From the IMG/VR virus record IMGVR_UViG_2585427746_000005, positions 1 through 50,193 of that record: a stretch of DNA of 50,193 nt; one strand, written 5' to 3'. This stretch comes from a virus. Lineage: Duplodnaviria; Heunggongvirae; Uroviricota; Caudoviricetes. The notes under the pieces were generated by a model. That model had not been told where the DNA came from. It saw only the letters and a list, made by a program, of their open reading frames with translations, and did not search any database. Both the position numbers and the translations under genes were made by a program. Shown piece by piece: positions 36,100-50,193 of the stretch (positions within the stretch are counted from its first letter, which is position 1; every line of letters starts with the position of its first letter).

Positions 36100-36144
36100 A
36101 TGTAGGAATTTCGGACGCGGGTTCAACTCCCGCCAGCTCCACCA
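36100..36144. repeat. attR: displaced 45-bp copy of the ssrA 3' end
   Basis: Identical to 1016-1060; followed by a second integrase gene. Confidence 0.85.
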
Positions 36145-36180
36145 ATTTTTGATATATTGAAGTTCAGTGAAGTCTATCAA

Positions 36181-36212
36181 GCCCGCATGGAACCAGCCTT
36201 GCGGGCTTTTTT
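36181..36212 (+). terminator. Rho-independent terminator downstream of the displaced ssrA 3' end
   Basis: GCCCGCA ... TGCGGGC stem followed by TTTTTT. Confidence 0.55.
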
Positions 36213-36310
36213 ACGTCTATAGTAGTCTACCGAGAATTGCTAGAATCTACTCGTTATGGCACCCTTTTTGGGACCCAACACAAAGGGTCCAAAACATGAG
36301 GGTCCCAAAC

Positions 36311-37540
36311 ATGGCAAAAATCGCTAAGAAGCTCACTGACACTGAAATCAAAAGCACCAAACCTGCCGAGAAAGAGGTTAACCTTTTTGACGGCGATGGT
36401 TTGCTCCTGCGAATCGCCCCCTTAGCGAAGGGAGGAAAGAAAAATTGGTATTTCAGATATGCAGTGCCTGTGACCAAAAAGCGAACTAAGGTGAGCTTAG
36501 GAACCTATCCTCACCTTACACTTGCGAAGGCACGAGCTTTACGTGATGAGTACTTGTCGTTGCTTGCAAATGGTATAGACCCACAAGTTCATAACACCCA
36601 CAAAGCCAATGCCCTTAAGGATGCAACGGAACATACATTTCAAGCAGTAGCCAAGAAGTGGCTTGATGAGAAAGTCAAAACGTCAGGCATCTCCCAGGAT
36701 CATGCTAACGACATCTGGCGAAGCCTAGAGAGAAATATCTTTCCAACGTTGGGTGATACCCCCATTAAGGAGATTCGCCCTAAAATGCTTAAACAGCATT
36801 TAGACCCCATAGAAAAACGAGGTGTCCTTGAAACACTTCGCCGCGTCATATCCCGCCTGAATGAAATTTTCCGCTATGCAGCAACAGAAGAACTCATAGA
36901 ATTCAATCCGGCTGACAACCTGGGGCAACGGTTCAGCAAGCCAAAAAAACAGAATATGCCAGCATTACCCCCTTCCGAACTCCCCCGCTTCCTGGTTGCT
37001 CTAAACAATGCTTCTATCCGTTTAGAAACAAGGCTACTGATTGAGTGGCAACTTCTCACATGGGTTCGCCCTGGTGAAGCTGTTCGCACAAGATGGTCAG
37101 ATATTGATATAGAAACCAGCATGTGGAACATCCCGGCGGAGTTTATGAAAATGAAGAAGCCTCACAAAGTTCCACTGAGCAAAGAATCTTTGCGAGTCTT
37201 GGATTCAATGAAAGCCATCAGCGGGCATAGAGAGTGGGTTTTTCCCAGTATCAAAGCTCCACTCAATCACATGCATGAACAAACAGCTAATGCGGCTATA
37301 ATCCGTATGGGCTTCGGAGGTGAGCTTGTAGCTCATGGTATGCGATCAATCGCTAGAACGGCGGCTGAGGAGTGTGGCAAGTTTAGAACTGATGTCTTAG
37401 AAGCCGCCCTTGCCCACTCGAAAAAAGATGAAATAATTGCAGCCTACAATCGTGCAGAGTATCTCACAGAACGTGTGGTTCTCATGCAATGGTGGAGTGA
37501 CTATGTTTCGTCTCAAAAATACAAAGTTATTGCCGCATAA
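36311..37540 (+). CDS. P4-type tyrosine integrase (IntA-like)
   Basis: Start moved to ATG MAKIAKKLTDTEIKSTKP...; N-terminal arm-binding-like segment and C-terminal catalytic domain. Confidence 0.9.
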   Translation: MAKIAKKLTDTEIKSTKPAEKEVNLFDGDGLLLRIAPLAKGGKKNWYFRYAVPVTKKRTKVSLGTYPHLTLAKARALRDEYLSLLANGIDPQVHNTHKANALKDATEHTFQAVAKKWLDEKVKTSGISQDHANDIWRSLERNIFPTLGDTPIKEIRPKMLKQHLDPIEKRGVLETLRRVISRLNEIFRYAATEELIEFNPADNLGQRFSKPKKQNMPALPPSELPRFLVALNNASIRLETRLLIEWQLLTWVRPGEAVRTRWSDIDIETSMWNIPAEFMKMKKPHKVPLSKESLRVLDSMKAISGHREWVFPSIKAPLNHMHEQTANAAIIRMGFGGELVAHGMRSIARTAAEECGKFRTDVLEAALAHSKKDEIIAAYNRAEYLTERVVLMQWWSDYVSSQKYKVIAA

Positions 37541-37822
37541 CTCTTCCATGATGGGTTAACTATCTTGATTTATTTGAAGAATTAATGATCACACCATTAA
37601 CCTATGTGGACTAAGCATAGCCATTTACAAATGGGTACCTTGAGGCCACATAACGAAAGCTGTCGGTCATATCAGCTAAATAATTCACATCTCTTCTCGA
37701 TTATCATACACCTCGAAGAACTACCAAATTCGCTCTAATCAATGATAAAACAGTTGAATTCGGTTAAAATTTGATCAATTTTATCCTCTACATTGTATTG
37801 AATCATCCATGAGGTTTTGTGC

Positions 37823-39379
37823 ATGGCTAGCGGAAATGAAAAAAATCATAGAGTTAGGGTCGCACAGTACTTGAGGATGTCTACCGACCATCAGCAATAT
37901 TCTTTACATAATCAGTCTGAATATATCAAAGATTATGCTGAAAAGAACAATATGGAAATCGCTTATACCTACGATGATGCAGGTAAGAGCGGAGTCAGTA
38001 TCGTAGGCAGGCATTCTTTGCAGCAGTTACTTAGCGATGTAGAACAAAAGAAAATAGATATACAGGCTGTATTATTTTATGATGTGAGCCGTTTTGGTCG
38101 TTTTCAAAATAGTGATGAAGCTGCATATTATTCCTTTCTATTTGAAAGAAATGGTGTAGATCTTATATATTGTTCCGAACCTATACCCACTAAAGATTTC
38201 CCTTTAGAGTCCTCTGTTATACTGAATATAAAAAGATCAAGTGCTGCATATCACAGCAGGAATCTATCTGAAAAGGTATTTATAGGGCAAGTAAATTTAA
38301 TAAAGCTTGGTTATCATCAAGGCGGTATGGCTGGTTATGGGCTGAGACGTCTTTTAGTAGACGAAAATGGCATAGCTAAAGAAATATTGAATTTCCGCAA
38401 AAGAAAGAGTATTCAAACAGATAGGGTAATATTAATTCCGGGACCAAAAAATGAAATAAAAATTGTAAATAGAATCTATGATCTCTTTATAGATAGTAAC
38501 GTCCCAGAATTCATTATTGCTGAGAGATTAAATGAACAGAGCATACCTGCAGAAAATGGAACATCATGGACTCGTGCAAAAATACATCAAATTTTGACAA
38601 ATGAAAAATATATTGGAAACAACATATATAACAAAACCTCATCTAAACTAAAAAGTAAGCTTGTAAAAAACCCCAAACATGAATGGATTAGATGTGACAA
38701 GGCATATAAACCAATTATTTCAAAGAAAAAATATAATAAAGCTCAAGAAATAATTCAGCTCCGATCCATTCATTTGACTAATGAAGATCTATTAGAAAAG
38801 CTAAAAGAAAAATTAGAATCTAATGGAAAACTATCAGGCTTTATCATTGATGAAGATGATACAGGCCCTTCATCTTCTGTTTATAGAACCCGATTTGGTG
38901 GTCTTTTAAGAGCATATACTTTGATTGGTTATAAGCCAGAACATGATTACAGCTATCTCCAAATAAATGAAGCACTAAGATCATTTTACTCAGAGATAAT
39001 TGAGGATTTTAAGGGCGAAATATTAAAAAGTAACTGTCATATAGACGAGTATAAATATTACCCAATGCTTTACATCAATGATGAGTTTTTAATTTCCGTC
39101 CTTGTTACTAAATGCATACATATGAAATCAGGTAAACTTAGATGGAAAGTCCGGTTTGATAACTCACAGAAAGCAGACATAACAATTGTTATACGAATGA
39201 ATTCACAAAATATTTCACCTCTTGATTTTTATATCATACCAAAGATTGAAAACGAATATAGTAAAATGTGTATGATGGAAACAAACAACATTCGGTTAGA
39301 TCTCTATAGATTTGATAATCTTGATAAATTTCTACAAATTATTACTCGCATGAAAGTGAGGGAACTATATGCTGCCTGA
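37823..39379 (+). CDS. Large serine recombinase (resolvase-domain N-terminus)
   Basis: YLRMSTDHQ...GKSGVS...LLFYDVSRFGR resolvase motifs with a long C-terminal extension; ATG with GAGG SD. Confidence 0.85.
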   Translation: MASGNEKNHRVRVAQYLRMSTDHQQYSLHNQSEYIKDYAEKNNMEIAYTYDDAGKSGVSIVGRHSLQQLLSDVEQKKIDIQAVLFYDVSRFGRFQNSDEAAYYSFLFERNGVDLIYCSEPIPTKDFPLESSVILNIKRSSAAYHSRNLSEKVFIGQVNLIKLGYHQGGMAGYGLRRLLVDENGIAKEILNFRKRKSIQTDRVILIPGPKNEIKIVNRIYDLFIDSNVPEFIIAERLNEQSIPAENGTSWTRAKIHQILTNEKYIGNNIYNKTSSKLKSKLVKNPKHEWIRCDKAYKPIISKKKYNKAQEIIQLRSIHLTNEDLLEKLKEKLESNGKLSGFIIDEDDTGPSSSVYRTRFGGLLRAYTLIGYKPEHDYSYLQINEALRSFYSEIIEDFKGEILKSNCHIDEYKYYPMLYINDEFLISVLVTKCIHMKSGKLRWKVRFDNSQKADITIVIRMNSQNISPLDFYIIPKIENEYSKMCMMETNNIRLDLYRFDNLDKFLQIITRMKVRELYAA

Positions 39380-40265
39380 AAAAAATGAATTCCCAATAAT
39401 TCAAATTGAGATTGCAAAAATAAAATTTCTTAACCCACGAACAAGAAATAAGGTAGTGCATGAAGAAATAAAGGAAAGCATAAAAAAAAGAGGATTAAGC
39501 AAGCCTATAAGCGTAAGAGCTATTGATGAAGACGATTTCAAATATGCTTTAATTTGTGGTCAAGGGAGAATAGAGGCTCTTGTTGCATTAGGTGAAACTA
39601 TTATTCCAGCAATTATAAGAGATGTATCAGAAGAAGATGCTTACGTTATGAGTTTAGTTGAAAACATTGCAAGGAGAAGACCACGTTCTAATGAGTTATT
39701 ACAGGTGATTAAAGACATGAAAATCAGAGGACTTTCAGACTCCGAAATAAGTGAGATTACTGGATATTCATCGAACTGGGTGAGCAGTATTAATATGCTT
39801 CTTGATAAGGGAGAGCATAAACTTCTCTCAGCAGTCGAACGGGGTAATTTGCCTCTGTATCTCGCAGTGCAATTTGCAAGATGTGAAACTGAGGAAGCAC
39901 AAGATATTCTTACCGAAGCATATGATAAAAAATTAATAAAAAGTCGGGACATTATAAAGATAAAATACATTCTAAATCAAAGAACAGTTGGGAATAAAGG
40001 TGCAAAAGCAGCCGGATTTTATTATCACAAACCATCAAAAAGGATGACTGCAGAGGAGTTGATTGAGCTTTATGAAAATAGTATCGCTGAACATAAATCT
40101 GTTTATAACAACTCGAAATTTATAAAAACCAATCTACTAATAATAAATGAGATTTTTAACATCATAATGATGAATAAAAGCTTTCAAAATATACTTGAAC
40201 AAGAGAATCTTTCAGAACTACCATCTCAGATATTAAACCCAGTAAACAAAGAGGTATCAAAATGA
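39369..40265 (+). CDS. ParB/Srx-fold N-terminal domain protein
   Basis: ICGQGRIEAL resembles the ParB GxxR box; 11-nt overlap with the recombinase gene. Confidence 0.65.
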   Translation: MLPEKNEFPIIQIEIAKIKFLNPRTRNKVVHEEIKESIKKRGLSKPISVRAIDEDDFKYALICGQGRIEALVALGETIIPAIIRDVSEEDAYVMSLVENIARRRPRSNELLQVIKDMKIRGLSDSEISEITGYSSNWVSSINMLLDKGEHKLLSAVERGNLPLYLAVQFARCETEEAQDILTEAYDKKLIKSRDIIKIKYILNQRTVGNKGAKAAGFYYHKPSKRMTAEELIELYENSIAEHKSVYNNSKFIKTNLLIINEIFNIIMMNKSFQNILEQENLSELPSQILNPVNKEVSK

Positions 40266-41158
40266 TTCAGATACGTTTTGGCAAAAATTTTATTTACCTG
40301 GAAACTAATAAGTTAATTCCATCTAAGGAATTATTAGAAAACGTAAAGCGAAGCCATAAATATCATCAAATAGTTACCTCTATCGAAAGCTTGGGTATTA
40401 TTGAACCAATAATAGTATTCTATGACAAAGATAAAGATGTCACTAAGATACTTGATGGCCATTTAAGGGTTGAGGCTTTAAAAGACTTAGATATAGAAAA
40501 AGCTCCATGTATACTTTCGAGCATAGATGATGCTTTCACTCCTAACAAACAAGTGAATCATATAAATGTAGTTGAAGAACATAGAATGATAATTAAGTCT
40601 CTGGCAAAAGTATCAATTGAAAAACTTAGTGCTGCTTTGGGCATATCTGTTGATGCCATAAAAGATAAAGCTAATGTGATGAACGGCATAGATCCAAGTG
40701 TAATTGCGAAACTTTCTGATAAACCTATACCTAAGGCTACATTTGACGTTTTGAGGAAAATGAAGCCAATTCGTCAAATTGAAGCAGTCGGTACAATGAT
40801 TAATTTTGATAATTATAGTAAAAAATTTGCAATGAGCATCTTGGATGCAACACCGTCATCGATGATAGTAAATAAAGGGAAAAACACTCCCTATAAAAAG
40901 GACATAAAAAAAACCATACTTCGTCTGGAACAAGAAATGGCAACAACTTCGGAAGAAACGAAAAAACTTCAAACCGAGTATGGTTCAGATATGTTGAAAT
41001 TCGTTATAATCCAGTCATATATTAATAAATTACTTGGCAACTCTAAAGTTCTTCATTGGTTCTTAGAAAACGAGGTTGATTATCTTAATGAGTTAAAAAG
41101 AATTTCTAGAATAAATTCTTTGGATGATAAGACTCTTACTGAAAACAGCCAGTCATAG
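40262..41158 (+). CDS. ParB-like nuclease domain protein
   Basis: KILDGHLRVEALKDL matches the DGHHR-type ParB-like nuclease motif; ATGA overlap with the preceding gene. Confidence 0.65.
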   Translation: MIQIRFGKNFIYLETNKLIPSKELLENVKRSHKYHQIVTSIESLGIIEPIIVFYDKDKDVTKILDGHLRVEALKDLDIEKAPCILSSIDDAFTPNKQVNHINVVEEHRMIIKSLAKVSIEKLSAALGISVDAIKDKANVMNGIDPSVIAKLSDKPIPKATFDVLRKMKPIRQIEAVGTMINFDNYSKKFAMSILDATPSSMIVNKGKNTPYKKDIKKTILRLEQEMATTSEETKKLQTEYGSDMLKFVIIQSYINKLLGNSKVLHWFLENEVDYLNELKRISRINSLDDKTLTENSQS

Positions 41159-41811
41159 TCATGGTTTTATATAGCCTAAATAAACCAAGAAGTATACTTA
41201 CACAACGACCTTCACGCCGAAGAAGCTGTCAGATACGCCAGCAACCAAAGCATTGCGTTTAAGAGTCAGTCATTGATACGAAGGGATAACTGCGTATCAG
41301 CAGCCGGACATTGAGTCGAATAAAGGCTGGTAGAGAGGGACAGTTCTGTGTCACCGGGAGATTAGTCAGAAACATCAGCGGCAGAACAGATGAACCAGCA
41401 ATTGGTAGTGTACAGAAAACTCTCCAGTATATAATTATTCAACTTAACACTAAAAAAAATCACATAGTTAATATCATAATTTTTCTTTGGTCTACTTATG
41501 CGAGAGATATTGTGGCTTCAACCTGGTATTAGGAGTCGTTTCAGATAAAAGATGTTCTTCGATTCGACTGGACTTGGTAATAGCAATAAGTAATCGTGAA
41601 TATTGAAGGACGAAAGGCTACTTCAAAACAAAGTAACCTTTCCAATATTCCCATATATGGGACAAGTGGCACATTAACTGCACATAGTGCAGGATACATA
41701 TGACATAAAACTTTTTATTTATGGCATACATTAAAAATAACTTTTATTTTACGAATGTCAATAGGCTCTTGCTTAATACTTTTAAAATAATTAATTGATT
41801 TTTTATTATAG

Positions 41812-41831
41812 CTTCGCTTGTACAAGCGAAG
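41812..41831. repeat. Perfect 20-bp palindrome
   Basis: CTTCGCTTGTACAAGCGAAG equals its reverse complement; in the 1-kb non-coding gap between convergent operons. Confidence 0.6.
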
Positions 41832-42162
41832 ATCCTATTGTTCTTGAATGAATAATGCCAATTATAAAAGAAGCAAGGGCTAACCCTACGAAGCCGCTGC
41901 GCTTGTTTCTTTGGGTTCCCCTTGCTTTTCTTCCCTTCGGTTAGAAAAGAAAATCCAGCCCAGTTTATCAACTATCTACAGTATTCCCACTAAAGAGTAA
42001 CCGCCACTTTATACTCCGTTTGTGAGCTGAGGCTACTGTAGCATTTTTGGGTTTAAATTTTCTATCATTACCAGTTGTTGTGTCGGGATAAAAATATTTT
42101 CTCGCATCCAACCATAAAGATAGCAGATTTGCTATCATCATCACTTCACATAATGAAACTTT

Positions 42163-42194
42163 TTAAGTAGGCCTAAAATACAAGGCCTACTTAA
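42163..42194 (-). terminator. Putative terminator hairpin after the RelA/SpoT-like gene
   Basis: 11-bp perfect inverted repeat TTAAGTAGGCC / GGCCTACTTAA, 17 nt after the stop; no clean U-tract. Confidence 0.4.
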
Positions 42195-42210
42195 TAGCCG
42201 GAGATAGTTA

Positions 42211-43116
42211 TTATTTAGATGCTAAAATAGTATTTTTATTGAATTTTTCATCAGCATCTGTAAGCTTTTTCATTATTAAAGCAGGGGCTATATCCTGAAG
42301 CTCCGTAGATTTTATGAAAAAATAATTACAAAGGTAAATTATATTATTAAGATTAATTGGTATATCAATATTATAATCTAACATTAACGATAACAAACGA
42401 TCTCTGTCAATTCTATAAAACTTTTTACCAAGCTCTTTCTCATTAATTATTGAAATTATCTTTTCATCAAGCTTATCGTCCATTCTCAATCTTAATTTAT
42501 TTCTTAGCATAGCGGACCATGCGCTTGACTTATAATTTCTATATGCTAAATCCTCAAATAACTTCATTATTCCCCAATCAGATGTTTCCAAAGAGGCGTA
42601 AATTCCATTCAGCGCGCGACTAAGGTCATTATGCTCAACCCAATCCTCTTTGCACTTATAGCGTAGATCATGCTCAACTTCATGCCATCCTTCAGATAAA
42701 ATAGTTCTAAATTGGACTTCAAAAGTAGTATCAATATAAGAATATTTCTTTAATAAGACACTATCATTTGATAATACTTCTGGTAACTTAAAGACGTAAT
42801 TGCATCGAGTTGCCGCAAAGAGATTAGCCGTGGTTTCGTCTACGGTTTTAGATTCAATTTCGAATAATTTCTCCAGTGTTTTTTGAGCAATAAATAAATC
42901 ATCAGGAAAATATAATATTATCCTAACCCCAAATAAGTCTTGAATTTTTTTACCATCCTCTGAGTATTTATTAGGCTCTTTTTCATATTTCTTAATTATT
43001 GAGCTTTCTGATTTTGTCCTCGAAAAAAAACGATAAAGTAATCCAATACGATTAAGTTCATCTTCTATATCTTTTTGCAAACTTTGAATAATTCGCAATT
43101 CATTCCCGTTATACAT
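42211..43116 (-). CDS. RelA/SpoT-domain nucleotidyltransferase (small alarmone synthetase / toxSAS-like)
   Basis: DLFGVRIILYF and FEVQFRTILSEGWHEVEHDLRYK match the synthetase-domain motifs; start overlaps the upstream stop (TGATG). Confidence 0.8.
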   Translation of the reverse strand: MYNGNELRIIQSLQKDIEDELNRIGLLYRFFSRTKSESSIIKKYEKEPNKYSEDGKKIQDLFGVRIILYFPDDLFIAQKTLEKLFEIESKTVDETTANLFAATRCNYVFKLPEVLSNDSVLLKKYSYIDTTFEVQFRTILSEGWHEVEHDLRYKCKEDWVEHNDLSRALNGIYASLETSDWGIMKLFEDLAYRNYKSSAWSAMLRNKLRLRMDDKLDEKIISIINEKELGKKFYRIDRDRLLSLMLDYNIDIPINLNNIIYLCNYFFIKSTELQDIAPALIMKKLTDADEKFNKNTILASK

Positions 43117-45221
43117 CAGAAATTCCTCCCAAGAATTGCTTTAATCTCTGATATTCTTGCCATGTTAAGTTCAAGGAACGAACGCTTGTCTGGCGTAAGT
43201 AAAAGACCGTCTTTCCTCAATTTATCTAAAGAATGGAGTATTTCACTTAACTGAAATTGATTGTTGTTAGAACATAAGCCTTTTATAGGCCGATGCTTAT
43301 GATAGCTAACACTCCCTCTGGGACAGAACTTCTCTAAGATGTAAATATCACAATCTGTAATATCGTGATCATTTTCACTGTTTATCTCGACAGATTTTTT
43401 ATTAATAGCATCATTGTCACATTCACATCCCAAAAAATAAATATCTTCCCTACCACTTAATTCGTTAAAACTACAATCTATAAAAGAACAGTTCACGAAT
43501 GTAACGTTTTTATAATTACCACAGGTAAATATGCTGCTAAAAAACGAACAATCAACAAAGATAGTATCATGTATTATATTTATATCGCCTAAAGAAAGTT
43601 TTGATATAGACAATTGCTCAACACTATCATTTTTTAAATCTAATGGAACTTTTCCTATAAGCAAATGACTATAAAGGATTTTATCATTACCTGACATAAA
43701 ATATAAAGCAAACTCTAAGCTATGCCAAAGTAATTCTTTTTCATCATCGATCCTCGGCATATAAGATTGCACTGCTGGTTCTATAAAACGTTTATCACCA
43801 ATCCATTCATTTGACTTATCATTAATAATATTTTCAGAAACAAAATTACCAAGAACAAATTCATTAACAAATCCAATACCTTGGTTTTCTGAGCCTGACC
43901 GATCTAATAGAGCATGCGATGCTAATTTATTAACTAATTCGTCAGTAGTTGGTCTTTCATCTACAGTATAAAGCTTTCTTGTAGCCTCCAAGAGTTGTTG
44001 ATTCTTTTCAGTTATGACTAACGATATATACTCTCTAGACTCAGATGTGTAGTTACCCTCGACCATGTCGTCAGCTATTATTTTTAGTATAGTATATTGA
44101 TCTTCAATAGACATTAATAAATCTTGTCTTTTTCTTTCTCGCTCAAGCATTGAATCAAAATACTTCCTCACTATAGTTGTTGGGTCGCTTATAACTTTAT
44201 TAAAGTCGGTGTCGTCGATGCATCTTAGAAATGATAGCAGTACAGGGTTTGATAATTTGTTAAGAGGAAATCCTGTCGATGAAATTTCATCTAAACGTTG
44301 ACCTGGAAGCCAGTCTTCAATTTGTGGTTCATGAATTCTTATTCTTATCACATCAAAATCTTCTTGATGTGATGCTATCCACTGATGGAATTCATCTCCG
44401 TCAAATATAGCTGTTCTTCGAGTTGTCAAAACCACTTTTGCACTATCAGTTAGAAGCTCACTTATTGTTTCCAGCATTGGCTCTGTTTTTTCATAATTAT
44501 TTTCAATTCCGTTTGTACTTTCATGCAATAGTTCATCAAACCCGTCAAGTATAACTGGTACATTTCCTGCTCTTATTTCATTCCTTACTAAGGCTGAGCT
44601 TAACAAAGGAAAACTTCTATCAATTTCATCTAATAGTACATACCTGAATATTTTTGCTTGCCTATTCCTTGATAGTTCTGAAAATAATGGTATTTTCCCT
44701 ATATTGTTAACTATAATCTCCCTCAATAATTCATACGCCGTGCAAGTCTTTCCAAAACCGGCTGCAGCCTCAATCAAAAACAGAATTGGACGCCTATGTT
44801 GTATTCTCTCTAATATTTCCGTAACAACATTAGCTTCGCCAATAACACCATTTAAGTAATATTTTGAATTTATGTAGGAATAAGTTGCAGTAGGTGAGTG
44901 AATTTTTACAATTGAATCTGTGAAAGTATTATAATCTTTAATCAACCTTTCTTTAGTTGAATCGACGCTAAAGAAGCCATTAAATAATTCCTTATGTGCT
45001 TCTTCATAAGACTGATATTTTTTAATTTGACATGCATAACCTAACTGCCTATATTCTTCAAAGGTTTGATTTACATTAACCTCATTATTTAGTGGAAGTA
45101 TGTCCGCGTTATGGTAGTGCCCTGTTTTAATAGAATATACAGCAATACTTTCGTTACCTGTATTTTCTTCAGTAAAACCAAACCTTTTATATATCTCTGT
45201 AAGTTTGCTTTTTCGTAACAT
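43116..45221 (-). CDS. NACHT/STAND-like P-loop NTPase with C-terminal pentapeptide repeats
   Basis: Walker A AAAGFGKT, NACHT-type Walker B VILDGFDEL, C-terminal FVDCSFFSSIFTCGNYKNVTFVNCSFIDCSF repeats; start moved to ATG with AGGAGG SD. Confidence 0.8.
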   Translation of the reverse strand: MLRKSKLTEIYKRFGFTEENTGNESIAVYSIKTGHYHNADILPLNNEVNVNQTFEEYRQLGYACQIKKYQSYEEAHKELFNGFFSVDSTKERLIKDYNTFTDSIVKIHSPTATYSYINSKYYLNGVIGEANVVTEILERIQHRRPILFLIEAAAGFGKTCTAYELLREIIVNNIGKIPLFSELSRNRQAKIFRYVLLDEIDRSFPLLSSALVRNEIRAGNVPVILDGFDELLHESTNGIENNYEKTEPMLETISELLTDSAKVVLTTRRTAIFDGDEFHQWIASHQEDFDVIRIRIHEPQIEDWLPGQRLDEISSTGFPLNKLSNPVLLSFLRCIDDTDFNKVISDPTTIVRKYFDSMLERERKRQDLLMSIEDQYTILKIIADDMVEGNYTSESREYISLVITEKNQQLLEATRKLYTVDERPTTDELVNKLASHALLDRSGSENQGIGFVNEFVLGNFVSENIINDKSNEWIGDKRFIEPAVQSYMPRIDDEKELLWHSLEFALYFMSGNDKILYSHLLIGKVPLDLKNDSVEQLSISKLSLGDINIIHDTIFVDCSFFSSIFTCGNYKNVTFVNCSFIDCSFNELSGREDIYFLGCECDNDAINKKSVEINSENDHDITDCDIYILEKFCPRGSVSYHKHRPIKGLCSNNNQFQLSEILHSLDKLRKDGLLLTPDKRSFLELNMARISEIKAILGRNF

Positions 45222-45298
45222 TAAACTCACCTCCTGATATTTTTCGCAATGATGCTATAGTCGCTGTATGAACTTTTAATATAATATTACAAAAACCA

Positions 45299-45337
45299 TC
45301 TACATAGCTACCGCCTAAGCAATAATAGCTATGTAGA
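45299..45337. repeat. 12-bp perfect inverted repeat upstream of the NTPase operon
   Basis: TCTACATAGCTA - 15 nt - TAGCTATGTAGA; followed on the minus strand by GGTTTTTG. Confidence 0.5.
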
Positions 45338-45945
45338 GATTATCTGTAAGAGAACAGTTCAACGGTTACGTGCACGTTATGACATCGTTCTAACTTCATG
45401 GGGTGCTCAGTAACAGAACTTTTAAGCCATTCTTGCTCGCTGAACATGCAGTCATACCTATCACAAGCAGTACAACCATTACTTAGCAGACCTCTGCTTC
45501 TTGTTCCAAAAGGAACGTAAACCAGATGTTAGAGTTAACAAAACTGAAAGCCACTGCCCCCCAAATCTCCAAGTCAAACATTAGAGACTTTAAGTGAGCT
45601 CAGCCCAGATTATGCATTCTAATCAATTTCCAAATAATCAATCGGGCTAAGCCGTGGTGGTCATCGCGCCAATCCCCATAATGAAGGATACATCTTGGCT
45701 GTATCATCTTCCTTACAACTGCGTTTCAACATGTGCTGAACAACACTCAAGTTAATGTAAATGAGCCAGTGAATACAACATCTGTTTCAAATCACTTTGA
45801 AGTTTTCTTCACTTAATGTGTACGCCAAAATTATCCGGATAAACATAGAGTAACGGTCGACCGGGATTACAATCAACCAGTTTCATCTCTAGTAAGCGAT
45901 ATTCTTAAGGCGGCAGCGGAATGTTCTGACAACCCCACTGAGGCG

Positions 45946-46332
45946 GTGCTACAAATCTTATCGAAGCCAAACATCAGCTACGTTTCCCTAGATGTTAAAA
46001 TCAGTAGTCGCAGGGCCAATGCTAATGATCCACACATTGACCGTGAAGGGGCCTTTCAGGTGGGTACGACTGCATTCCAAGTGACCACCGCACCTATGGA
46101 GAAATTGATTTCACACTGTATCAAAATCAAACGCGCAGGCTACAGGCCGGTCATCCTAACTCTTGAAAGCAAGGTCATTGCAGCACGCCAGCTGGCTGAT
46201 AACGTTGGTATGTCTGAACTGATAGCCATCCAGGCAGCTGAAACTTTCATTGGTAACAATATTGAAGAGATTGCTATTTATGACGGCGATAAAATCCGTG
46301 AGAGTCTCGCAAGATTGATACATCTCTTATGA
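45946..46332 (+). CDS. Hypothetical protein or gene remnant
   Basis: 128-aa ORF with GTG start and no clear SD, after about 600 bp of ORF-free sequence. Confidence 0.3.
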   Translation: MLQILSKPNISYVSLDVKISSRRANANDPHIDREGAFQVGTTAFQVTTAPMEKLISHCIKIKRAGYRPVILTLESKVIAARQLADNVGMSELIAIQAAETFIGNNIEEIAIYDGDKIRESLARLIHLL

Positions 46333-46913
46333 TTGATGAGCCTCTTGGATCGTTAACTTACTGACCGACTCCTGAAATACATAGAGCTCAGTAAGCTTAA
46401 CGAGTCGCTTTTTTCCACCATACCTAAGCCCCAAAACTAAAGCACTACGGCTTGATTGGGCTGGCGTAAGTCTGCACACCGAGCCTTTTGCACTATAAAT
46501 TTCTCAGAATATATAACCAATATGTCAGTAAAGGTTTAAAGTGAATGATTCGTTTTGGCAGGATACTTACGATTATCACAACACTATCACATATTGTGTC
46601 TCACACACAAAGTTGAAAATCAAAACAGAAGTAAAAGATATAATATTCCCCTGCTAAAATACGATTCACTTCAAACATTTAATATTAATGGGATATATTT
46701 CCCCCTAAGCAATGGGGAAAAACGCCCATCAATCAACCATGAAATAAAAATAGCACTTTTTGCAAACTATGAATTTATTTATATAAAACATCACATTAAA
46801 TTAGTTTATTCAAAAGAAAACGCTTGCTTATTTTTTATTATTAAAAATAAATTTGATTTTTATTTATTTGATAATATACATTCATTTCATCAAAATAATA
46901 AAGGAGAATAAAA

Positions 46914-47354
46914 ATGAAAAAACAAAACTATTCAACCCTGACAAGTTACCTATCTAAAACAAAAAAGAATACAGATCTCTACCGTCTGTATAACCCTCAC
47001 TTTTCAATATTCTGTAAAAATAGCATTGAAGATCATGTTTTTTATCTTAATTATTTTTCCAGACATATGGTGACGGAAAGAAATATTCTGACCATATTTG
47101 CTATCCATACCTTTTTCTCTTATAGCATGGAAAAAAAAGACACCATAAAAGCTTTTACCCGTTTTCTTAAAGAGGAGAATCACGATACTTTCTATCAGTC
47201 ATTTTCTTTTCGTGGCTGCAATATCATTTACACAAACAAAAAAGGCGAAGTGAAAGAGATCTCATGGTTTTCTTTTTCACGGATCTATGACGAGATCATT
47301 AAGATAAAAGAATATGAATACAACAATAATACCTGGCACAAAACGACCGCTTAA
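46914..47354 (+). CDS. Hypothetical protein (first gene of ankyrin operon)
   Basis: 146-aa AT-rich ORF, ATG with AAAGGAG SD. Confidence 0.6.
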   Translation: MKKQNYSTLTSYLSKTKKNTDLYRLYNPHFSIFCKNSIEDHVFYLNYFSRHMVTERNILTIFAIHTFFSYSMEKKDTIKAFTRFLKEENHDTFYQSFSFRGCNIIYTNKKGEVKEISWFSFSRIYDEIIKIKEYEYNNNTWHKTTA

Positions 47355-47368
47355 AAAGGAGAACGCCC

Positions 47369-48322
47369 ATGAGTAACTATACAGAAGATAATTTATTTGA
47401 CAGCAAAACTAAAAAAGACGTCCAGAATTGCATTGCTGCAGGCATTGACATTAACACACTTAATGAACACGGTGAAAACGCCCTTTTCGGTTGCGACAGT
47501 ATCGGGGCTTTAAAAGCCATGATTGAAGCAGGCATAGCGCTGAACCATACAGATTGTTATGGTAATAATGCCCTGTTTAGCAGAAAAAGCCCACGTGCAG
47601 TGAGGCTATTGATAAAGTCAGGTATTAACGTTCACCACAAAAATAATAAAGGCCAGTCCTGTCTTCACTGGCAGCGCTACGCCATAGATTGTGCGGAACT
47701 CCTCATAAACGCGGGCATTGATATCCACAGCACAGATAACGAAGGACAAACGCTTCTTTATGACCTCCTCGATCATGACGTCTTTGATTACTGGGTAAAT
47801 AAAGGGTGTGACATAAACCACAGAGATTATGGTGGCAAAGCGGTGCTGGATCTTCCGACTGACAACGAGTGGTGGATATATGATTTCAGTATTAATGCCC
47901 TCAAACGCCATGTTGATAGAATAGACAGCACGCCAGTATTATTTAAACATGTTTCAACTGAGGCTTTGCCTCTAATTGCTTTGCTTCATGAAAAAGGGCG
48001 TAATATCCTTATCGCTGAACACTGTTCCTTCGCATTATATGTCAAAAACATGAAGTACTTCTTTACCTCACTGAAAAAATATACCGATATCAGTCATGTT
48101 CAGTTTTATAATTGTTATCATGATAAACATATTGGTATCTACACCGGCATAGAAAGTGTGAAATGGTTCATTCGAAATGGTATCCGAATGGACGACGATA
48201 TACTCAGACAGCGTTCTGACTCCGATAAGATTTTTTCTTATATCGCAGCAAGAGAGAAAAAAGACCTGTTAAAAGAAATGAAGCCAGAGATCCCCCGTTC
48301 ATCTGTACGAAAAAGACTCTAA
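47369..48322 (+). CDS. Ankyrin-repeat protein
   Basis: At least four N-terminal repeats of the G-x-(N/T)-(A/L)-L...L(I/L)..G(I/A)..N pattern; ATG with AAGGAG SD. Confidence 0.75.
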   Translation: MSNYTEDNLFDSKTKKDVQNCIAAGIDINTLNEHGENALFGCDSIGALKAMIEAGIALNHTDCYGNNALFSRKSPRAVRLLIKSGINVHHKNNKGQSCLHWQRYAIDCAELLINAGIDIHSTDNEGQTLLYDLLDHDVFDYWVNKGCDINHRDYGGKAVLDLPTDNEWWIYDFSINALKRHVDRIDSTPVLFKHVSTEALPLIALLHEKGRNILIAEHCSFALYVKNMKYFFTSLKKYTDISHVQFYNCYHDKHIGIYTGIESVKWFIRNGIRMDDDILRQRSDSDKIFSYIAAREKKDLLKEMKPEIPRSSVRKRL

Positions 48323-48396
48323 AACTCTGGAGTAAACAACCCTTTTCTTAGTCTGCAAGGATTCATTTAATGACCATTAATCTGATATGTCCTCGT

Positions 48397-48430
48397 GGGT
48401 ATACTATTTGTCAAATGGTATACCTTTTTT
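48397..48430 (+). terminator. Putative terminator after the ankyrin operon
   Basis: GGGTATAC ... GTATACC stem followed by TTTTTT. Confidence 0.4.
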
Positions 48431-48523
48431 AATCCAGATAATTAAATTATTTATCCCGTAACAACTTGACTTATTCATTTCATCGGTTATCTGTAGTAAT
48501 AAACATGAAATAAAAGGATAACT

Positions 48524-48931
48524 ATGAACAGTGACATGAGTAATGATGATGATATAACCAGAGTATCAAAACGCGGTAAATTCCATACTGACAAATTTCC
48601 TGAGAATGAAATACGACATCACTGCATCAGTGTCAGATTAAATGAAGAAGAATTAATTATTCTCGACAGTAAAAGAGGTCAGTATAAAAAAGGAGAATGG
48701 CTCAGGATGGCTTCCCTGAATAAACTCCCGCCGGTTCTGCCAGAAATCAATCGTGAAGCATGGATAAAACTTGGCAGCCTTTCACAGGATTTAAACTACC
48801 TGTTGAGTCATCTCGACAGCAAAAGCCCTGACAGCGAACTGACCCGTACAGAACTCTTCGCCCTGCGCAGACAAATCAAAACTCTCAGGGATCACCTTAT
48901 TCCCTCAACATTTCTGGAGTCAGACCCATGA
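48524..48931 (+). CDS. MobC-like relaxosome accessory protein
   Basis: 135-aa protein with RHH-like segment and LGSLSQDLNYLLSHL motif; ATGA overlap with the relaxase gene. Confidence 0.65.
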   Translation: MNSDMSNDDDITRVSKRGKFHTDKFPENEIRHHCISVRLNEEELIILDSKRGQYKKGEWLRMASLNKLPPVLPEINREAWIKLGSLSQDLNYLLSHLDSKSPDSELTRTELFALRRQIKTLRDHLIPSTFLESDP

Positions 48932-50193
48932 AAGGCATGCAGAAAATAAAAAGGGGTAAACAATTCACAGGTGTGGTTATTTATAGCCTGAAGTCAGGTT
49001 CTCACCACAAAATCACGCCTTATGTCATCGGTGGCAACATGACGGGTAGCACTGCTGCTGAGCTTATAAGTGAATTTGAAGGCACCCGACTGCTGCGTCC
49101 CGATGTCGCCAAACCTGTCTGGCATAATTCACTTCGCCTGCCAAAGGGTGAGAAACTGTCAAACAGACAGTGGGCAGCATTCGCTGACGATTATATGGCC
49201 CGAATGGGCTTCACTGACACCCATCTTCGCTGCTATATCATGCACGATGATCCGGATGGGCAGCATATTCATATCATTGCAAGTCGTATTAACATGGTCG
49301 GTGGAAAACTGTACCTGGGGAAAAATGAAAATCTTATCGGCACACGGATTATCAGTGAGCTGGAGAGAGTACACGGCCTCACCGAAACTACGGGTGTAAC
49401 CGGCAGTAGCCGCCAGGATAAAAGGAAGCCTTCCCGTAATGAACTGATGATGGCAGAACGCACAGCAGCTCCCTGCCCTAAGTCACTGTTGCAGGCCCTG
49501 CTCGACAATGCATTAACACACCATCCCGATTTACTAACCTTTGTTCGCTTACTGGAACAGGAAGGAGTGACCTGCAAACCCAATATCGCCACTACGGGTA
49601 AAATGAGTGGATTTTCATTTCAATACCAGGGTATTGCCTTTAAAGCATCTCAGTTGGGTAAAAAATATGGCTGGTCTTCCCTGCAAGCACTGATTGATTT
49701 TACGCCTGAGCATCTGAGTTTACTGAAAGAAGCCCAGAGGCCAATAGAACCTACAACCGCGCCAGTGCCAGTGCCAGTGCCAGTGCCAGTGCCAGTGCCA
49801 GTGCCAGTGCCAGTGCCAGTGCCAGTGCCAGTGCCATCATGCGAGTCTGAAGAGCAGGCTGCAAACCGGGAAACGATTCTGGAGAAAATCCATCAGCTTG
49901 AAGAAAAAATTCGTCTGGAAAGACAACAGGAGACAGTGGGTATCATCCAGCTCAGGAGCAATCTGCACAATACAGCTCGTCAGATACCCCGCCAGCGTCG
50001 TCTGTATTCATGGCTTGTATTGCTCGTCCATATTGTGGCACTTCTCAGGCGCAGAGGCATGTCTCTGTTACATGCCACTGCACATCCTTTCCACCAAATC
50101 CTCCACCTACATATTCTGACACCCTGTCATCCCATGACAACAAATACCAATAAAGAACAATCATTTAAAAACAACAACCATCCTGCACCATAA
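48928..50193 (+). CDS. Mobilisation relaxase (MobA-like)
   Basis: Histidine triad IMHDDPDGQHIHIIASRIN; internal (PV)n linker; stop TAA at window end. Confidence 0.8.
   Translation: MKGMQKIKRGKQFTGVVIYSLKSGSHHKITPYVIGGNMTGSTAAELISEFEGTRLLRPDVAKPVWHNSLRLPKGEKLSNRQWAAFADDYMARMGFTDTHLRCYIMHDDPDGQHIHIIASRINMVGGKLYLGKNENLIGTRIISELERVHGLTETTGVTGSSRQDKRKPSRNELMMAERTAAPCPKSLLQALLDNALTHHPDLLTFVRLLEQEGVTCKPNIATTGKMSGFSFQYQGIAFKASQLGKKYGWSSLQALIDFTPEHLSLLKEAQRPIEPTTAPVPVPVPVPVPVPVPVPVPVPVPVPSCESEEQAANRETILEKIHQLEEKIRLERQQETVGIIQLRSNLHNTARQIPRQRRLYSWLVLLVHIVALLRRRGMSLLHATAHPFHQILHLHILTPCHPMTTNTNKEQSFKNNNHPAP
49762..49836 (+). repeat. Hexanucleotide tandem repeat (CCAGTG), about 12.5 copies, encoding (Pro-Val)n
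   Basis: Uninterrupted CCAGTG repeats inside the relaxase ORF, in frame. Confidence 0.9.

Follow-up and report, generated by a model that had tools for sequence, protein, structure and literature searches.

Why does the gene of a DNA-processing enzyme carry a perfect six-base microsatellite within its reading frame, and does the length of that repeat matter? The question is raised by a 50,193-nucleotide stretch of DNA catalogued as virus record IMGVR_UViG_2585427746_000005 (the window, by which we mean the whole stretch), at the right-hand end of which lies a relaxase gene with a run of Pro-Val dipeptides. We favour, with a probability of about 0.7, the reading that this repeat is an in-frame hexanucleotide variable-number tandem repeat (VNTR) encoding an alternating X-Pro spacer in the inter-domain linker of the relaxase of an integrative mobilizable element (IME), and that the length of the spacer is loosely constrained. 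The array is in frame, changes by whole units, changes faster than its flanks acquire point mutations, and keeps X-Pro across different repeat units; it sits between a conserved relaxase region and a conserved C-terminal segment.

A perfect in-frame hexanucleotide array

Tandem Repeats Finder placed a period-6 array at 49761–49836 (12.7 copies, 100% matches, 0 indels, score 152), and a direct scan showed the same interval to be an unbroken period-6 run of 76 nt, 12.67 × GCCAGT. An initial annotation of the sequence had put about 12 copies of CCAGTG at 49762–49836; unit and position were correct, and the perfect run begins one base earlier. The same annotation had read the repeat as in-frame (Pro-Val)n, and the open reading frame (ORF) at 48928–50193 indeed reads (PV)12P: 12 × CCA-GTG (49762–49833) followed by CCA (49834–49836) on the + strand, or (Pro-Val)12-Pro at residues 279–303. 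The other two + frames across the array would give (Ala-Ser)n and (Gln-Cys)n and neither is open, and no minus-strand ORF in the window's ORF list spans the array. With perfect head-to-tail units, a 6-nt unit inside an ORF, and variation in whole units, the array has the properties of an in-frame coding VNTR.

Such arrays are rare in this DNA. A direct scan of the 50-kb window for perfect tandem arrays (at least 18 nt, at least 3 copies) gave the relaxase array alone, and nearly all such arrays elsewhere in the 530 kb of window plus fetched loci are the homologous relaxase array. By calculation, the chance expectation for 70 consecutive period-6 matches in 50 kb is about 5e4 × 4^-70, which is negligible. 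Single-stranded folding of the + strand of the array was no better than that of shuffled sequences (z 0.67), and the − strand gave a weak, mismatched hairpin only (−13 kcal/mol, z −2.65); given both scores, we rejected hairpin-driven instability as a strong structural driver.

The array lies between two conserved parts of the relaxase

The relaxase (48928–50193, + strand, 421 aa) is a member of the MobA/VirD2-like nuclease family and a MOBP-type relative, and its TAA stop forms the final three bases of the window. Pfam PF03432 matches residues 32–151 (E=1.6e-22; 80.6 bits against a gathering cut-off of 24.6). The NCBIfam relaxase models TraI_MobP, Bacteroides MobB and MbpB align to residues 6–256 with scores below their cut-offs (50.9, 57.3 and 41.6 bits against 250, 400 and 400, respectively), so that the protein is a relative of the named equivalogs and not a member of them. 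Y19 and H106-D107-D108...H113-I114-H115, which supply the catalytic Tyr and the HxDx5HxH motif, are unchanged in 29 homologues. RefSeq annotates the identical ORF in E. coli AST198 (L001; homologous loci are numbered with an L throughout), and the 421-aa protein has no exact-sequence entry in the protein cluster collection. Over its N-terminal 250 aa, this protein shares 43% identity with the relaxase of 8.3-kb IncQ2 plasmids, and the MOBP label is taken from the PLSDB/MOB-suite typing of that plasmid homologue.

Profile and homologue coverage delimit an N-terminal relaxase and DNA-processing region at residues 1–262 (48928–49713); residues 1 to about 260 are the sole part kept in the wider family, where nearly all representative matches cover them. 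Comparison of alleles defines a variable, non-repetitive pre-array linker at residues 263–278 (LSLLKEAQRPIEPTTA; 49714–49760), which in other alleles contains decayed repeat units such as GTACCT, GCACCT and TTAACA. Beyond the array, invariant columns and a low-confidence AlphaFold2 outline mark a C-terminal module at residues 304–421 (49837–50190). This module consists in order of an invariant SC..EE..NRETILEKI.QL block, a predicted long helix, a hydrophobic helix (LYSWLVLLVHIVALL) and a variable tail, and its W..IP.L..LLK..GK.LLH motif is common to distant relatives. The AlphaFold2 model, used for a rough secondary-structure outline alone, gives coil at residues 270–307, a long helix at 308–351 and the hydrophobic helix at 355–375. 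A search for a related solved structure returned only compositional matches to the PV-rich tail, with E about 0.5. The array at residues 279–303 thus follows the relaxase domain, as had been proposed, whether that domain is bounded by PF03432 or by the NCBIfam models that reach to about residue 256.

Copy number changes in whole units on a single flank haplotype

We next examined copy number in E. coli, using window positions 48500–50193 as the query against complete genomes and retaining full-length matches of this allele. The resulting set comprised 59 complete genomes with 0–1 mismatch in 1618 flank bases, as judged from BLAST bit scores. Match spans fell into nine classes (1646, 1658, 1664, 1670, 1676, 1682, 1688, 1694 and 1700 bp), and all differences between them are multiples of 6. 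One flank haplotype therefore carries nine whole-unit alleles of 4.67–13.67 copies. The commonest has 7.67 copies (17 genomes), followed by 8.67 (11 genomes) and 6.67 (7 genomes); 9.67 and 11.67 copies occur in 6 genomes each, 12.67 and 13.67 in 4 each, 10.67 in 3 and 4.67 in 1. The mean is 9.2 copies, the variance 4.8 and the Simpson diversity 0.85 (n=59). Copies read directly from sequence were 12.67 in L001 and L057, 8.67 in L002, 7.67 in L003 and L004, 13.67 in L058 and 11.67 in L059. No frameshifted or pseudogene allele is listed among these E. coli alleles, all of which are intact coding sequences. The initial annotation had foreseen both that length would alter in 6-nt steps without loss of frame and that copy number would differ among homologous islands, and both expectations are borne out by this comparison; the outcome that it named as refuting, one and the same copy number in every homologue, is not observed.

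Near-clonal isolates place the array on a faster clock than the surrounding DNA. Two chicken isolates, Z1323CEC0007 and CEC0003 (loci L057 and L059), have 0 mismatches across 25.7 kb and a single 6-nt gap (12.67 against 11.67 copies); Z1323CEC0011 shows 2 mismatches and one additional unit. The pig isolate Res13-Lact-PER12-33-A is one unit apart from ER02-39 and PER04-33 (L002 against L003 and L004, 8.67 against 7.67 copies), with 0 mismatches in 41.6 kb. The same allele is shared within the three MRE162 substrains, within Z217-2 and -4, within TB4019 and TB4328, and by five of the six Res13 isolates. Since near-clonal isolates can differ and clonal sets are mostly stable, the array is fast relative to point mutation yet not wildly unstable.

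Allele-size variance and flank diversity together give a ratio of array to per-site mutation rate of about 4e4, which is an order-of-magnitude guess because the genomes are not independent and the island moves horizontally. The implied array rate would be of order 1e-5 per generation, very roughly. Measured rates for E. coli VNTRs with 6–7-bp units, which change by whole units, are 4.4e-5 to 1.8e-3 per generation (PMC3777172), and the rough rate of the relaxase array matches the bottom of that range in order of magnitude.

The X-Pro register is kept while the repeat unit changes

Is the repeat a peculiarity of this allele or a property of the subfamily? In the 120 closest protein clusters, drawn from E. 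coli, Klebsiella, Enterobacter, Citrobacter, Salmonella, Raoultella and Cronobacter at 79–96% identity, lengths range from 399 to 420 aa, mostly in 2-aa steps, with a few of 400 or 420 aa. All 120 carry (Pro-X)n directly ahead of an invariant Ser-Cys, with n from 2 to about 15 and X being Val, Met, Ala, Glu or Leu. The commonest alleles in the E. coli clusters (VPASVPLTVPVPS) are each found on several hundred contigs; their DNA runs GTACCT GCACCT GTGCCA TTAACA and continues with a few live GTGCCA or ATGCCA units, and they look like decayed arrays.

A sample of 45 loci from other species, with one genome per species, has perfect arrays of 2–23 copies at the same protein position, built from differing hexanucleotides. 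GTGCCA (Val-Pro) reaches 18.5 copies in Citrobacter meridianamericanus, the longest of several; ATGCCA (Met-Pro) has 5.8 copies in L015 and L018; GCTCCT (Ala-Pro) reaches 23 copies among L025, L026, L027 and L029; GCACCA (Ala-Pro) has 11 copies in Rahnella; and GTCCCT (Val-Pro) has 5.8 copies in Erwinia tracheiphila. Members with just 2 units are L016, L023/24 and L055. When the N-terminal 262 aa are placed on a tree, all arrays fall within a single clade that consists of Pro-Val and Pro-Ala branches; in a small intermediate branch there is Ala-Pro-Ala-Pro only, and the outer branches have long, non-repetitive, acidic, Ser/Thr/Pro-rich linkers and no array. Across the wider family, represented by 150 sequences at 50% identity, a strict dipeptide array occurs in 1 of 150, and that representative ends within its array.

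Clades differ in the codons that they use for one and the same dipeptide, which points to a constraint on the peptide and not on the DNA word. Judged from these alignments, what is conserved is the in-register alternation of X and Pro. That arrays of differing units are nonetheless pure in turn implies continued, slippage-driven homogenisation over long periods.

Several side observations concern repeats in this family and its neighbourhood. The array-bearing wider-family representative, P0121 (288 aa, metagenomic), ends within a (Pro-Ala)n array at what looks like a contig break, which suggests that short-read metagenome contigs can break at such microsatellites. In Pantoea sp. GD03673 (L032, 5801–5865), a related island whose relaxase has no array contains a perfect (CTGGCT)10.8 repeat, which in a neighbouring minus-strand ORF of 348 aa encodes (Pro-Glu)n close to the C-terminus, and a further instance of such a neighbouring hexanucleotide array lies at the locus end of L030 (5790–5811). 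Downstream of the relaxase homologue of Erwinia phyllosphaerae (L031, 5559–5643) is a perfect period-8 array, TAAAATAC × 10.6, which extends to the end of the fetched locus.

The relaxase gene is a recombination mosaic

We aligned window positions 48524–50193 with homologues from L005–L022 and L050–L054 and compared third-codon-position identity upstream and downstream of the array. Identity was 0.69 upstream and 0.98 downstream for L009–L015, and 0.98 upstream and 0.78 downstream for L051–L053. Because the discordance runs in both directions, the relaxase gene is a recombination mosaic. The mobC-position gene and the post-array segment can be 98–100% identical between species whose relaxase N-terminal domains differ by 15–30%, and the last ~80 relaxase codons exist in at least two types with only about 57–66% DNA identity. 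For the L009 lineage, the junction can be placed in an interval that opens 7 bases before the array and closes 45 bases after it. Other junctions lie ~150 bp upstream of the array (L010/L011/L019) and ~110 bp downstream (L051/L053, L018/L050). Junctions at the array in one of at least three events amount to no demonstrable hotspot.

A probable length-tolerant spacer and its alternatives

How might such an array arise and persist? Copy changes would come from replication slippage, that is, slipped-strand mispairing. Six-base loops are poor substrates for MutS-dependent repair, and they would persist because that system recognises them poorly. Repeated gain and loss of units would homogenise the array, which would be why new units such as ATGCCA, GCACCA and GTCCCT fill entire arrays. 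In the protein, the alternation of Pro with another residue leaves no Pro-Pro stalling motif. The rise per residue in an extended peptide of this kind is about 0.3 nm, so that each unit would add ~0.6 nm and the E. coli alleles would span ~3–8.5 nm. An (X-Pro)n peptide would be extended and fairly stiff: (AP)5 and (PK)7 peptides adopt extended conformations with increased persistence length (PMC13351908), and domain separation is raised by proline-rich linkers and not by Gly4Ser linkers (PMC4191447). The initial annotation had proposed a length-polymorphic hinge; the polymorphism in length stands, and for the flexible hinge an extended, semi-rigid spacer is the better fit (PMC13351908). Such a spacer would keep the N-terminal relaxase domain at a distance from the helical C-terminal module, which presumably serves in oligomerisation or in docking to the coupling protein. 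Selection would act to keep a Pro-rich spacer in place and would constrain its exact length only loosely, in which case most copy-number variation would be tolerated drift and not a switch. In our view, a required Pro-rich spacer of loosely constrained length is most likely.

Alternative explanations weigh differently against these data. Long-read-only assemblies can miscount repeats, and one metagenomic homologue is truncated within its array, so an artefact of sequencing or assembly deserves consideration, as does an ON/OFF phase-variation switch; we give this pair of ideas almost no credence. The array is present in at least 130 independent complete genomes and at least 30 other species, arrays measure 28–138 bp and so fall below ordinary read length, and no frameshifted or pseudogene calls accompany them. 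An artefact is excluded by the multiples-of-6 pattern across many independent assemblies. A phase-variable or contingency locus is likewise excluded, as a 6-nt intragenic unit keeps the frame and every observed allele is in frame. The earlier suggestion that the array is a hotspot for assembly errors thus finds little support, the array being shorter than ordinary reads and the 59 alleles differing by sixes; the truncated P0121 is a counter-instance. A second idea locates the function in the DNA, with the array serving as a homology patch for exchange of N- and C-terminal modules and the peptide being secondary. The array is identical between alleles that are otherwise 15–25% diverged, the upstream and downstream identities are discordant both ways, and the L009-lineage junction does lie at the array. 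Yet only one of at least three junction events falls there, and clades that differ in the DNA unit nevertheless keep X-Pro, which points to a constraint on the peptide; we consider a DNA-level role very unlikely.

A more serious contender, although one we still regard as unlikely, is that linker length sets mobilisation efficiency or helper compatibility, through the geometry between relaxase and coupling protein or within a relaxase dimer, and that a slippage-prone array is kept because it allows rapid re-tuning. It would account for pure arrays at one position across clades with only ~50% N-terminal identity, for the replacement of the unit across whole arrays, and for the high diversity on a single flank haplotype; a chromosome-only element without conjugation genes in the region seen would also depend on helpers, and helpers are varied. 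Against it, the short, decayed and stable VPASVPLTVPVPS alleles are the commonest in the E. coli protein clusters, clonal sets are mostly stable (MRE162 ×3, Z217 ×2, TB ×2 and 5/6 Res13), and the life cycle of a microsatellite in a tolerant linker accounts for the pattern without second-order selection. Doubtful, in our estimate, is a broader version in which a self-homogenising (X-Pro)n ruler has been kept over Enterobacterales genera, with slippage re-tuning the distance from head to C-terminal module for each helper, and/or the array acting as a homology patch for module swaps.

The loosely constrained spacer that we prefer has its own difficulties. Copy number was read from sequence at 7 loci and inferred from alignment spans at most others, and some of the single-unit differences between assemblies might in principle be consensus errors. 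AlphaFold2, run on a 29-sequence alignment, reached a mean predicted local distance difference test (pLDDT) score of 43.5 and a predicted template modelling (pTM) score of 0.25; because the model is poor, the domain boundaries rest on profile coverage and conservation. The members with 2 units show that a long spacer is not essential, and the long-term purity of the array in many lineages could mean that mutability or length itself is selected. All of these points weigh against the reading of a required but length-tolerant spacer.

The relaxase gene lies in an island at ssrA

Window positions 36100–50193 are 99.97% identical to the ssrA-adjoining island of E. coli AST198 (L001), which carries genes for an integrase, a recombinase, two ParB-like proteins, a RelA/SpoT-NACHT pair, DUF4928 and an ankyrin-repeat protein, followed by the mobC-position ORF and the relaxase. 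Among 5426 complete E. coli genomes, 171 hold the relaxase, at 173 places that are all chromosomal, with 0 on plasmids. The relaxase being always chromosomal in E. coli, the island that bears it looks like an IME. No conjugation genes were found in the island region seen; as a chromosome-only element without them, it needs a helper. A plasmid origin was rejected on the ground that every E. coli copy is chromosomal, and the lone near-full-length "plasmid" match, a 3.6-kb linear contig, looks like an island fragment.

Immediately upstream of the relaxase, a 135-aa ORF (48524–48931, + strand) ends with a stop codon that overlaps the relaxase start (ATGA). Neither Pfam nor NCBIfam gives a match for this ORF; in plasmid relatives, the corresponding position immediately upstream of the relaxase holds an annotated MobC, by analogy with which the ORF probably encodes a relaxosome accessory protein. 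Its RefSeq name varies by genome between "hypothetical protein" and "ATP-binding protein", and the latter looks unfounded because of the lack of any such match. Farther upstream, an intergenic, near-perfect 13-nt inverted repeat with a 1-nt loop (GGTATACTATTTG / CAAATGGTATACC; 48398–48424) is a candidate origin-of-transfer (oriT) hairpin.

The left part of the window holds other elements. Positions 1–1061 are smpB-ssrA, and a ~35-kb P2/Fels-2-like prophage at 1062–36099 stands between ssrA and the mobilizable island. The att copies lie at ~1016–1061 and 36100–36145, the last 46 bases of ssrA being present twice. Given the position of the prophage between ssrA and the island, two elements are integrated in tandem at ssrA. 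Its identity to the P2-like prophages of complete E. coli genomes is only ~81% for the prophage, and no complete genome holds more than 76% of the prophage. Within the island, a RelA/SpoT-domain gene adjoins a NACHT-domain gene on the − strand at ~42210–45220 (mapped from L001 13711–16721), and the two have the appearance of a defence-type pair. Annotation of the Korean chicken isolates splits the NACHT gene into two hypothetical proteins, and an IS2 adjoins this gene in the Res13 isolates. At ~15473 of L002 and L003 (Res13-Lact), a 15-nt difference (CATCTACATAGCTAC) abuts the IS2 terminal inverted repeat; apart from this stretch and the one-unit repeat difference the 41.6-kb regions are identical, and the stretch may reflect either a variant IS2 junction or a difference in assembly.

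Relation to known systems and significance

By analogy, the array appears to operate like known coding VNTRs and dipeptide-repeat spacers. The hexanucleotide VNTRs used in E. coli multilocus VNTR analysis (MLVA), for example O157-10 and the Vhec loci, are likewise perfect short-unit arrays that change by whole units through slipped-strand mispairing and show high allele diversity among near-identical strains. The relaxase array differs from those loci in three ways: its island is accessory, being present in 171 of 5426 complete genomes; the repeat is translated in frame; and other genera keep a repeat there too, built from different units. We rejected identity with a GECM-10 MLVA locus, as the primers of its ten loci (CVN, CCR; PMC8143711) match neither the window nor L001 at up to 3 mismatches.

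Dipeptide spacers offer a second comparison. The R region of S. aureus ClfA and the Sdr proteins is a Ser-Asp dipeptide spacer between functional parts that is length polymorphic between strains; it belongs to a cell-wall-anchored surface protein and is built from a degenerate 18-bp DNA unit. The relaxase array, in contrast, is X-Pro, has a pure 6-bp unit and resides in a cytoplasmic DNA-processing enzyme. The (Glu-Pro)n(Lys-Pro)m spacer of TonB and Ala-Pro-rich inter-domain linkers share with the relaxase linker an alternating X-Pro, extended and stiff character, and the relaxase linker gives a weak compositional match to the NCBIfam TonB model (E=0.0029, 17.5 bits). That match covers the linker only and its score is far below the cut-off of 315, so membership of the TonB family was rejected and the likeness is one of analogy, not homology; nor is the TonB spacer a pure DNA microsatellite. 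Closer relatives are the MOBP relaxases of small plasmids (IncQ2 MobA with MobC), which have a similar N-terminus, an upstream gene in the mobC position, and the catalytic Tyr and His-x-Asp...His-x-His residues. The IncQ2 relatives and 149 of the 150 wider-family representatives nevertheless have other C-terminal regions and no dipeptide array after the relaxase domain, and the array-bearing subfamily in E. coli is chromosomal only, unlike these plasmid relatives. Literature searches for proline-repeat linkers in relaxases or for PVPVPV strings returned nothing relevant, and we came across no published account of a relaxase with a polymorphic X-Pro microsatellite.

The type of array is itself known and fairly ordinary; what is new is the family-wide picture of a shared register with different units, together with the allelic series. 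If length is functionally neutral, the locus would be of interest mainly for typing and as an annotation curiosity. Long pure microsatellites being uncommon in E. coli, the array is a fast-evolving marker able to separate near-clonal isolates that carry the ssrA island. It also marks the boundary between two modules of a poorly characterised subfamily of IME relaxases, and its 2–23 X-Pro units form a natural allelic series for relating spacer length to relaxosome function and helper compatibility. Across the family, the pattern is that of a microsatellite conserved as a repeat, in which the DNA unit turns over while the peptide register stays constant.

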